Assembly (NCBI GenBank): GCA_963514005.1
Contig: OY740797.1
Span: 20,088,001-20,152,000, forward strand
Length of the DNA: 64,000 nt
Source: Raja brachyura
Lineage: Eukaryota
Direction: 5' to 3'
Below, piece after piece: positions 32,798 to 34,266 of the stretch. The position numbers were made by a program, and so were the translations under genes. The notes below the pieces were generated by a model. That model was not told the DNA's origin, did no database searches, and saw only the letters and a program-made list of their open reading frames with translations. Position 1 is the stretch's first letter. Every line of letters starts with the position of its first letter.

Positions 32798-34266
32798 GTG
32801 ATCCCTTTAAACGTAACTTTGTCAACATCAAGAAACGCAGACTTCAATAATAAGTTATAACATTATACGGTGTTTCCAGTCATACCTTGGTCAGGTTTGC
32901 GAAGGGCGTGCATGGCAATGGCGGGTCTTTGGAGGGAGATGTGTGTCACCAGACAAATGTAAATATTCCCGTTCGCCTCCGACTGCGTCATGGCTATTGA
33001 AGTGGAAGCCGTGTACAGCCCTTCACTGTTTTTCTGTTTAATGGTATCAGCCTTAGCTGTAACAGCAACGCTATTTTTATACCATAGAAGGGTTAGATCA
33101 CCTGGGTGAAACTCGGCCGTTTCACAGACAAGCGTTGTAGCTGCAGATGAATTCCTCTCGGATATCCAGTTAAGCTTCAGTGGAGTTGGAAGGGCTATGG
33201 GTCAGAGTGCGAAAATATAATATTACTGGGATGAAATTAAACAAAGACAATAGGAGAATCTTGTTTAGAAAGCCACATATTTTACCCGATCCCTTCAAGA
33301 CAGAAGTTAACGAATTATCGATATCTGTTACCTCATACAGCCTAGCGCAAGAACCGCCGCGGAAAGTTAATTTTGTTTCAACTCAACCAGCGTTCAATGA
33401 CACGAAATGTTGAATCTTTTGGAGGTGCAATTTATAGTGATTTATGCTGGATCGTATTTGAAGGTGTGATGATCTCTTGATTGAAAGCTATTGTTAGCTG
33501 TTTTGAAATACATCTTATTTGCTGTATTTTTAACAAATATTTTCGGCATAGTAATATTGAACGTTGTAAATTCAATAAAACGAGCATCAAATTATATCGT
33601 TAGCAGTTTTCACATAATTTCATTGGGCCCTTCTCTCTCAGTAATCTGAACTCTAATATAGAAATATAATTATTGTGCAATATTCTCAGGTATTCTGTTC
33701 ACGTTTGTCACTCACCACATACTGTTAGTTCTGACCCTGTTCCTTCTCCCCTAATTTCTCCCTGACGCAAGACTATACAGCGATAGTTTCCCGAATCCTG
33801 GTAGGTCGTGTTCAGCAAGTCAAAATATCCGCCTGCTCTATTGTTGATGGTGATTCGCTTTCTGCCATCAGCGTCGTTTTGTATATATCCATTCTCCCCC
33901 TGTTTTTGCCATCGCACTTCGATCCCCGAACTTTCATCCGTAAGTGGGATTATGCAGTGAAAGGTGACGTTTGCTCCCTTCAATATAACCACTCGTTCTG
34001 GAATTTGGGTAACGTGGATCGATTTTTTTTCAGCAGCTGTTGGAAAAACGTTTAAGATTTGGTTAATTATATTCAATGTAGAACCAACTCTTTTGATAAT
34101 ACATTGGTATGAAAAACAAAACTAACAGACAAATAGAACAAATAGATTTCACCAGTTAAGCCTGGAATAGTTTTGGATATTTTGACATTTAGATAAGTCT
34201 ATCTGAGATCGTTCAGGTACCTGTGCAAATAATCATGGAGAGAGACAGAATCAGGACCAGAAACAT
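28715..34266 (-). CDS. Gene A: spliced inhibitory IgSF receptor, leader-VJ-C1-TM-ITIM/ITSM tail (SIRP-alpha-like), 357 aa
   Basis: Exons 34221-34266, 33716-34036, 32886-33194, 31296-31406, 30318-30349, 29732-29830 and 28715-28870. All introns are GT-AG with compatible phases (1,1,1,1,0,0). Total is 1074 nt, open to TAA. Tail motifs are LTYSAV, TAYAKV, LTYASV and TEYAAL. Confidence 0.88.
29280..29655 (+). mobile_element. Decayed CR1 fragment in gene A intron 6
   Basis: CR1 3' UTR (gatcagccatgat...ggctgaatggcc). Confidence 0.65.
29732..29830 (-). CDS. Gene A exon 6, ITIM LTYSAV plus ITSM TAYAK|V
   Basis: VEANNILTYSAVDMSSSKRKWTHKSEDETAYAK; acceptor gtgcag, donor gtaaga; 99 nt, phase 0-0. Confidence 0.85.
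30318..30349 (-). CDS. Gene A exon 5, short cytoplasmic exon (KQRSTGGHEES)
   Basis: Acceptor cttttag, donor gtatgc; its 32 nt supply exactly the phase 1-to-0 change needed to join the ITIM exons. Confidence 0.72.
30480..31225 (-). mobile_element. CR1-clade 3' fragment in gene A intron 4
   Basis: ORFs 30638..30820, 30847..31068 and 31041..31223 (LVRPHLEYC, FFTQRVVGVWN). Confidence 0.85.
31296..31406 (-). CDS. Gene A exon 4, uncharged transmembrane segment
   Basis: EGHNEHLYIWASGSAVGGIAILVFVFIIVLRCRSTTK; acceptor ctttcag, donor gtaagt; 111 nt, the same length as the gene B TM exon. Confidence 0.88.
31974..32037 (-). ncRNA. Minimal type-I (Penelope-type) hammerhead motif with intact core, in gene A intron 3
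   Basis: GGU-CUGAAGA-A-GGGUC-[32-nt internally duplicated loop]-GACCC-GAAAC-GUC-GCC; part of a short dispersed repeat at ~31878-32037. Confidence 0.55.
32745..32797. repeat. (TAT)n microsatellite
   Basis: About 17 perfect units in gene A intron 3; absent from the homologous gene B intron. Confidence 0.95.
32886..33194 (-). CDS. Gene A exon 3, Ig C1-set domain
   Basis: ALPTPLKL...LVCETAEFHPGDLTLLWYKN...NSEGLYTASTSI...YICLVTHISL carries the C1 signatures CxxxxF(Y/H)P, WxKN and YxCxVxHxSL. 309 nt, phase 1-1; absent from the ORF track. Confidence 0.93.
33716..34036 (-). CDS. Gene A exon 2, Ig V-set domain with germline-joined J-like strand
   Basis: Inside ORF 33708..34076. Motifs VTFHC, VRW, DSGNYRC and GEGTGSELTV; acceptor caacag, donor G|gtgagt, phase 1-1. 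Confidence 0.93.
34221..34266 (-). CDS. Gene A exon 1, signal peptide MFLVLILSLSMIICT
   Basis: 46-nt hydrophobic leader exon ending in phase 1 at G|GTAC; identical to the gene B leader. Confidence 0.88.

Follow-up and report, generated by a model that had tools for sequence, protein, structure and literature searches.

Exon organization of the focal gene and its twin

Through analysis of the window, the whole stretch of 64,000 nucleotides of Raja brachyura DNA, a receptor-type gene of seven exons has been identified on the minus strand. Exon 1 (34221..34266, 46 bp, phase 1) encodes a split leader, runs from the ATG to a phase-1 GT donor and matches the N terminus of the little skate protein P0008. 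Exon 2 (33716..34036, 321 bp) encodes a short V domain with a germline-joined, J-like G strand; it is matched by the Pfam V-set and I-set families, its structural model reaches a pLDDT of 89.5, and it closes with GEGTGSELTVC followed by a GTGAGT donor. Exon 3 (32886..33194, 309 bp) encodes a C1-set domain (Pfam C1-set E 3e-12, against 1e-3 for C2-set_2), and exon 4 (31296..31406), recognized by its splice sites, frame and the transmembrane (TM) table, an uncharged TM segment. The cytoplasmic part is distributed over three exons: (i) exon 5 (30318..30349, 32 bp, phase 1 to 0, with AG/GT ends), whose peptide is also present in P0008; (ii) exon 6 (29732..29830), with the ITIM LTYSAV and the ITSM-type motif TAYAK/V, the latter completed across the exon junction; (iii) exon 7 (28715..28870), with the ITIM LTYASV, the ITSM-type motif TEYAAL and the stop codon. 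The last two were recognized by their motifs and splice ends. The leader, V and C1 exons have AG/GT ends throughout and keep the frame, and all seven exons join with such ends into a single frame of 358 residues, giving an intact-looking gene.

The first-pass annotation had described this locus (32886..34266) as a germline-joined VJ exon followed by a C1 exon and a TM segment. Its range covers the part from the C1 donor to the start codon; the announced TM exon does exist, beyond that range, and the three cytoplasmic exons with their four tyrosine motifs had been missed. The claim that one exon encodes both the V domain and the J-like G strand is borne out, and no recombination signal sequence (RSS) has been found at or near the gene; the whole window holds only two weak RSS-like matches, at 20667 and 10302. 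The second domain is a true C1-set domain, as proposed, and not of the C2 or I set. The layout of a TCR chain applies to the ectodomain (germline-joined VJ, one C1, TM) and does not extend to the whole protein, in which the stalk is free of cysteines, the TM segment carries no charged residue and the tail contains four ITIM/ITSM-type motifs. A tail of this kind is an inhibitory signalling module, and TCR chains are not known to possess one.

The focal protein is identical to P0008 in 301 of 355 residues (85%), and its identity is 54% to a devil ray, 61% to a sawfish and 47% to a horn shark protein. The tyrosine motifs of the tail are kept in the homologues from all four animals. In the four sequencing runs compared, the contigs are of genomic type and show no splice joints across the exons. 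An alternative frame with tyrosine motifs, near 29.3-29.2 kb, was not accepted as an exon, since the homologous proteins lack it and two of the runs have a 28-bp deletion at that place. The extra cysteine closing the V exon (ELTVC, 33717-33719) is conserved across the focal subfamily, in rays and sharks alike, and could form an interchain disulfide.

A twin gene lies on the plus strand, 26 kb away within the window. It is formed from a leader exon (60651..60696), a VJ exon with 91% amino-acid identity to the focal V (60881..61201), a C1 exon 99% identical to the focal one (61723..62031) and a TM exon (63850..63960) encoding an arginine close to the outer face (WSAVRPAVV); in the 30 kb downstream, no exon with tyrosine motifs was detected. 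At the DNA level, identity between the two genes is 96-99% over the segment that begins 300 bp upstream and ends with the C1 exon; past this exon it is 57% for the following 300 bp and 60% for the TM exon. For opposing receptors, PMC3210942 describes homogenisation that is confined to the exons of the ligand-binding part.

Relics of older family copies and mobile elements are also present in the window. By tblastn, a leader with a 5' V fragment of an older copy was located at 59417..59918 (+) and a frameshifted C1 fragment at 62618..62825 (+). An orphan family-type TM exon relic lies at about 17115-17190 (+), with no V or C1 exon of the same orientation beside it in the window. A young LTR retrotransposon (10325-15037) has two identical 203-bp LTRs and one frame of 1419 codons with reverse transcriptase, RNase H and integrase; positions 1-120 hold a matching LTR piece that is inverted relative to it. 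The interval separating the focal gene from its twin contains a broken pol region of an LTR element (37328-40644, -) and a LINE-type reverse transcriptase frame (49876-51699, -).

The gene family in the skate genome

At least 32 matches to the focal V exon have been found in the skate's own genome, all of them on contig C17: 17 at 19.69-20.28 Mb, 14 at 24.72-25.11 Mb and one at 16.79 Mb. A profile search of 1.66 Mb round these matches revealed 32 V exons, and a C1 exon follows every one of them; several of the genes are frameshifted. A joined G strand ends every V exon of the family, with G-x-G-T/S in 24/32, and this J-like strand is devoid of the F/W of the Ig/TCR J motif. No RSS was detected within 300 nt on either side of any of the 32 V exons.

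Profile-HMM classification, suggested by the first-pass annotation as a check, assigned the second domain to the C1 set, also in all 24 family C exons scanned. The V exons match both the V-set and the I-set (26/26 scanned), and for the focal V the two are about equal (I-set 27.2, V-set 26.9 bits). The spacing between the two V cysteines is 54-59 residues in the family, compared with 63 in a bird SIRPalpha. The top structural match of the V model is VNAR (Z 14.7, rmsd 1.8, 97 aligned), tied with NCAM2, basigin and CD79b, and Foldseek gave similar TM-scores for CD79b, VNAR, SIRPalpha and TCR-beta. Since CD79b, VNAR, SIRPalpha, TCR-beta and NCAM all lie close together, the fold searches assign the domain to no family. 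Searching the V exon and the V profile against the sequences of solved structures returned mainly multi-domain I-set proteins and did not rank the V types.

A TM exon has been identified for 30/32 family genes; g10 and g22, with no credible TM, were left out of the TM counts. Seventeen of these 30 genes carry one or two exons with ITIM and ITSM-type motifs, and HMM and blastn searches of 14-30 kb revealed none for the remaining 13. The outer part of the TM segment contains an arginine in 1/17 of the genes with tyrosine motifs and in 8/13 of those without (Fisher p 0.0016, the genes not being independent of each other). The exceptions are five tail-less genes without the arginine and one tailed gene with it. 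Each of the eight arginine-bearing, tail-less genes has a tailed counterpart whose V is 91-100% identical. In g21 the donor site of the TM exon is lost, and the frame stops 12 residues further on. The association is weaker in database proteins (12/31 tail-less against 8/47 tailed, p 0.038), where the test relied on a coarse window in which arginines beyond the membrane are counted too, and 32/110 proteins have no TM.

The twin V exons are under purifying selection, with a pN/pS of 0.37 over 8 pairs; the focal pair differs by 9 non-synonymous and 2 synonymous changes. Positive selection between twin V exons was not found over the 8 pairs, and an arms race is therefore not supported. In the tree, g24 (arginine) groups with g31 (ITIM) and not with the genes of the same TM type from two other skates, whose proteins of matching TM type group with each other; this is as expected if the ectodomains were homogenised after speciation. 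The genes form a paired-receptor family with homogenised ectodomains, in which nearly the same extracellular part is joined to an ITIM tail in some members and, in others, to an arginine-containing TM segment with no such tail. A TM exon of FcR-gamma is present in the genome, and PMC3533184 describes arginine-TM receptors pairing with FcR-gamma for LILRA and DCAR.

Gene g5 (C17:19788540-19789926) has two TM exons after a single C1, one uncharged and one with an arginine, and could give two forms by alternative splicing. The genes g1 and g13 (C17:16788014 and 20060333) are divergent; their TM is of the PWWI type, no exon with tyrosine motifs was found for them, and their grouping with proteins of sharks and chimaera suggests old conserved subfamilies. 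The database members P0059, P0073, P0076, P0081 and P0098 (two of them named as shark) possess short tails and a TM with an outer arginine and an inner D/E-H pair, and in this they resemble FcR-gamma-coupled receptors such as NKp46 and LILRA.

Distribution, trees and genomic neighbourhood

A profile search at E 0.001 returned 2124 proteins, of which the best 150 were examined. All 26 family proteins with a species name (only these were counted) are chondrichthyan, from skates, rays, sawfish, seven shark genera and Callorhinchus; the others may include one from a bony vertebrate. Among the database proteins with a family V, 66/78 consist of one V and one C domain and 2 have two C domains. Their automatic names vary widely: SHPS1-like, tapasin-related, class II beta-like, IgL-like and nitr1d. 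Immediately below the family in V-profile score (42-61 bits) are three multi-V proteins with J-like G strands, P0127, P0166 and P0173 (two named as turtle), which are possible distant relatives. No earlier description of the family, nor any described chondrichthyan family of the same architecture in which its domains would nest, was found in the literature searched; prior mention is possible in subscription papers and supplements.

A quick V+C1 tree with 125 rows unites 96 of them (29 skate genes and 67 database proteins) in one clade (SH-aLRT 99), outside which the SIRPs from bird, bat and lizard make up a clade of their own. The three Callorhinchus proteins fall into different subfamilies, which indicates that the family diversified before the chimaera-elasmobranch split. 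The C1 tree of 43 rows, with no TCR C domain knowingly included, also recovers the family as one group (97/94), apart from the SIRP C1 and from nine skate C1 of the Ig/MHC type.

The first C17 cluster is flanked on the left by exons of an Ndr-family gene, BBS2, a CUE-domain gene and NUDT21, and on the right by a GST. Its right flank also holds an exon of a helix-hairpin-helix protein with an internal repeat (L031:7302-8138, +), which we take to be EEPD1-like. The second cluster lies between an amino-acid transporter with an oxidoreductase on one side and a septin with an LRR gene on the other. Among these neighbours are presumably NDRG4, AMFR, SLC38A8, OSGIN1 and DNAAF1, located on human 16q. 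Of the linkages that the first-pass annotation had proposed to look for (the MHC, an MHC paralogon or the SIRP neighbourhood), those with MHC class I and with the SIRP marker were not found. MHC class I domains are located on C25 and on unplaced contigs, not on C17, and none of the best 150 C1-set matches in the genome falls on C17. NSFL1C is the SIRP linkage marker; SEP-domain genes lie on C4 and C22, and the 200 kb round the NSFL1C-like gene on C22 contain no family-like V or C1 exon. Runt genes lie on C5, C12 and C31. A tandem cluster of 26 single C1 exons, similar to Ig light-chain constant exons, occupies C30:11.88-12.92 Mb. The paralogons named in PMC10751288 are those of human 1, 6, 9/12/14 and 19.

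Interpretation and comparison with known receptor systems

Judged from its sequence features, the focal gene is likely an inhibitory member of a chondrichthyan family of paired VJ-C1 receptors. The predicted receptor consists of a leader, a short VJ domain, one C1 domain, an uncharged TM and a tail with two ITIM+ITSM pairs. By analogy with known paired receptors, and from the motifs, binding of a ligand by the V domain would lead to phosphorylation of the tail tyrosines and recruitment of SHP-1/SHP-2, with a damping effect on a cell of myeloid or NK-like type. For the arginine twins, signalling would run through an ITAM adaptor, FcR-gamma or possibly CD3-zeta. Gene conversion or duplication of an exon block may keep the twin ectodomains alike, in which case both would see the same ligand. 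A surface protein of the animal itself, or a pathogen molecule mimicking one, is the probable ligand.

It is conceivable, though rather doubtful, that the tetrapod SIRPs have their true chondrichthyan orthologue in this family, which would then act as a "don't eat me" checkpoint on phagocytes, with a C1 domain lost here or gained there and the locus moved. The nearest Atlas clusters are those of SIRPalpha (0.96, 204/256 features), colinear BLASTP matches to bird SIRPalpha reach 27% over V-C1 and 26% over C1-TM-tail, and many NCBI names are SHPS1-like. The plan of the four-tyrosine tail is the same, and the family tail profile scores the bird SIRPalpha tail at 38.3 bits against 9.5 for the best shuffle (875 of 1000 shuffles reported). 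A genome search with bird SIRPalpha revealed no other SIRP-like locus; its best matches, however, are C1 exons on other contigs, and only 1/56 matches falls on C17. The trees keep the family and the SIRPs separate, with no supported sister link, neither V nor C1 exons of the family type occur within 100 kb of NSFL1C, and there is one C1 domain instead of two. SIRP-beta uses the adaptor DAP12 (PMC3533184), whereas the activating forms here have an outer arginine. The CD47 TM family gave no match, in a search of a kind that does not show absence.

Derivation from the novel immune-type receptors (NITR), as a chondrichthyan branch in which C1 replaced the I domain, appears improbable. NCBI calls the closest protein "novel immune-type receptor 1d" (XP_055504649.1), and PMC2442602 credits the NITRs with J-like V domains, ITIMs, activating forms that have a charged TM, and expansion in clusters. 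The same source gives them a six-cysteine I domain, however, and the family lacks it, having two invariant cysteines and a C1-set match in 24/24; the same family also bears five other automatic names. Of the teleost NITR synteny markers given there (map4k2/men1/rtn3 or fgfrl1), none was seen in the cluster flanks read, and the Runt-domain genes, among which runx1 is named as the holostean marker in bioRxiv 2021.06.11.448072, are not on C17. Still less credible, and highly improbable in our judgement, is the reading of the focal gene as a TCR-like chain that descends with little change from the non-rearranging VJ-C1 gene invaded by RAG, or is its close sister. The first-pass annotation had pointed to the resemblance with such an ancestor, and this holds in so far as a two-domain VJ-C1 gene is drawn as the precursor by Flajnik et al. 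2025 (PMC12227049, Fig. 2 legend). The split leader and phase-1 exons, a family older than the chimaera-elasmobranch split and the VNAR top match would also fit. The resemblance is nevertheless generic, because joined VJ is already listed for CD79, NITR, SIRP, CD8, NKp30 and PRARP (PMC11599192); joined-VJ genes are a known class (PMC11599192 and PMC7916673), and the idea of their likeness to the pre-RAG gene is already in print. Against a relic stand the ITIM/ITSM tail with its uncharged TM, a J motif without F/W, a C1 outside the skate Ig/MHC-type group (97/94), a location away from both the MHC class I contig and the best 150 C1-set matches, the tie of VNAR with NCAM2, basigin and CD79b, and fast birth-and-death evolution.

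The paired VJ-C1 receptor reading can be extended to a wider proposal, that the family is the main germline paired-receptor system of cartilaginous fish, a counterpart of KIR, LILR and NITR more than 400 million years old, and at the same time the surviving two-domain VJ-C1 lineage ancestral to the SIRPs and possibly to the short VNAR-type V and the RAG-invaded precursor. We regard this proposal in full as unlikely. For mammals, birds and bony fish, the large families of inhibitory and activating receptors have been charted in detail. The present genes, if not described before, represent a paired family of roughly 30 genes that occurs in all three chondrichthyan lineages, masked by misleading automatic names. 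Its members would be candidates for the NK or myeloid self-recognition receptors of sharks, and they would add minimal VJ-C1 membrane receptors to the short list available for reasoning on the pre-RAG gene and the origin of SIRP.

By the features tested, the family is not Ig/TCR, UrIg or NITR, and it has one C1 domain fewer than SIRP. As regards Ig and TCR, the RSS (0/32) and F/W-G-x-G (0/32) are both absent, and the C1 clade lies apart from the nine skate rows of Ig/MHC type. LILR and PIR, according to the cited sources, share with the skate family the pairing of ITIM forms with arginine-TM FcR-gamma forms and the homogenisation of ectodomains. Their domains are of the C2 type, unlike VJ plus C1. 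NKp30 (NCR3) carries an arginine in its TM. It differs from the skate family in having a single V domain and in being MHC-linked; NKp30, PRARP and Xenopus VJC1 are all listed as joined-VJ genes. The elasmobranch UrIg and UrIg2 resemble the family in a non-rearranging single-exon VJ, C1 domains and a split leader (PMC12227049). In the same text, UrIg has three C1 domains, is secreted and is MHC-linked, and UrIg2, with nine C1 domains in the nurse shark, lies with IgH/TCR; in contrast to both, the skate family has one C1, an ITIM tail, many genes and another location. The NITRs of ray-finned fish likewise form a large clustered family with germline VJ, ITIM and charged-TM forms and lineage-specific expansion. 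However, the skate family possesses a C1 in place of the six-cysteine I domain and shows no Runt linkage. Judged by domain and tail plan, the family probably works most like SIRP, with which it shares a J-like V and C1-set ectodomain, a four-tyrosine ITIM/ITSM tail and inhibitory/activating pairs. Bird and bat SIRPalpha are built as V-C-C, whereas the skate family is characterized by a single C1, a shorter V, about 30 genes, an outer-TM arginine, no NSFL1C linkage and a clade of its own.
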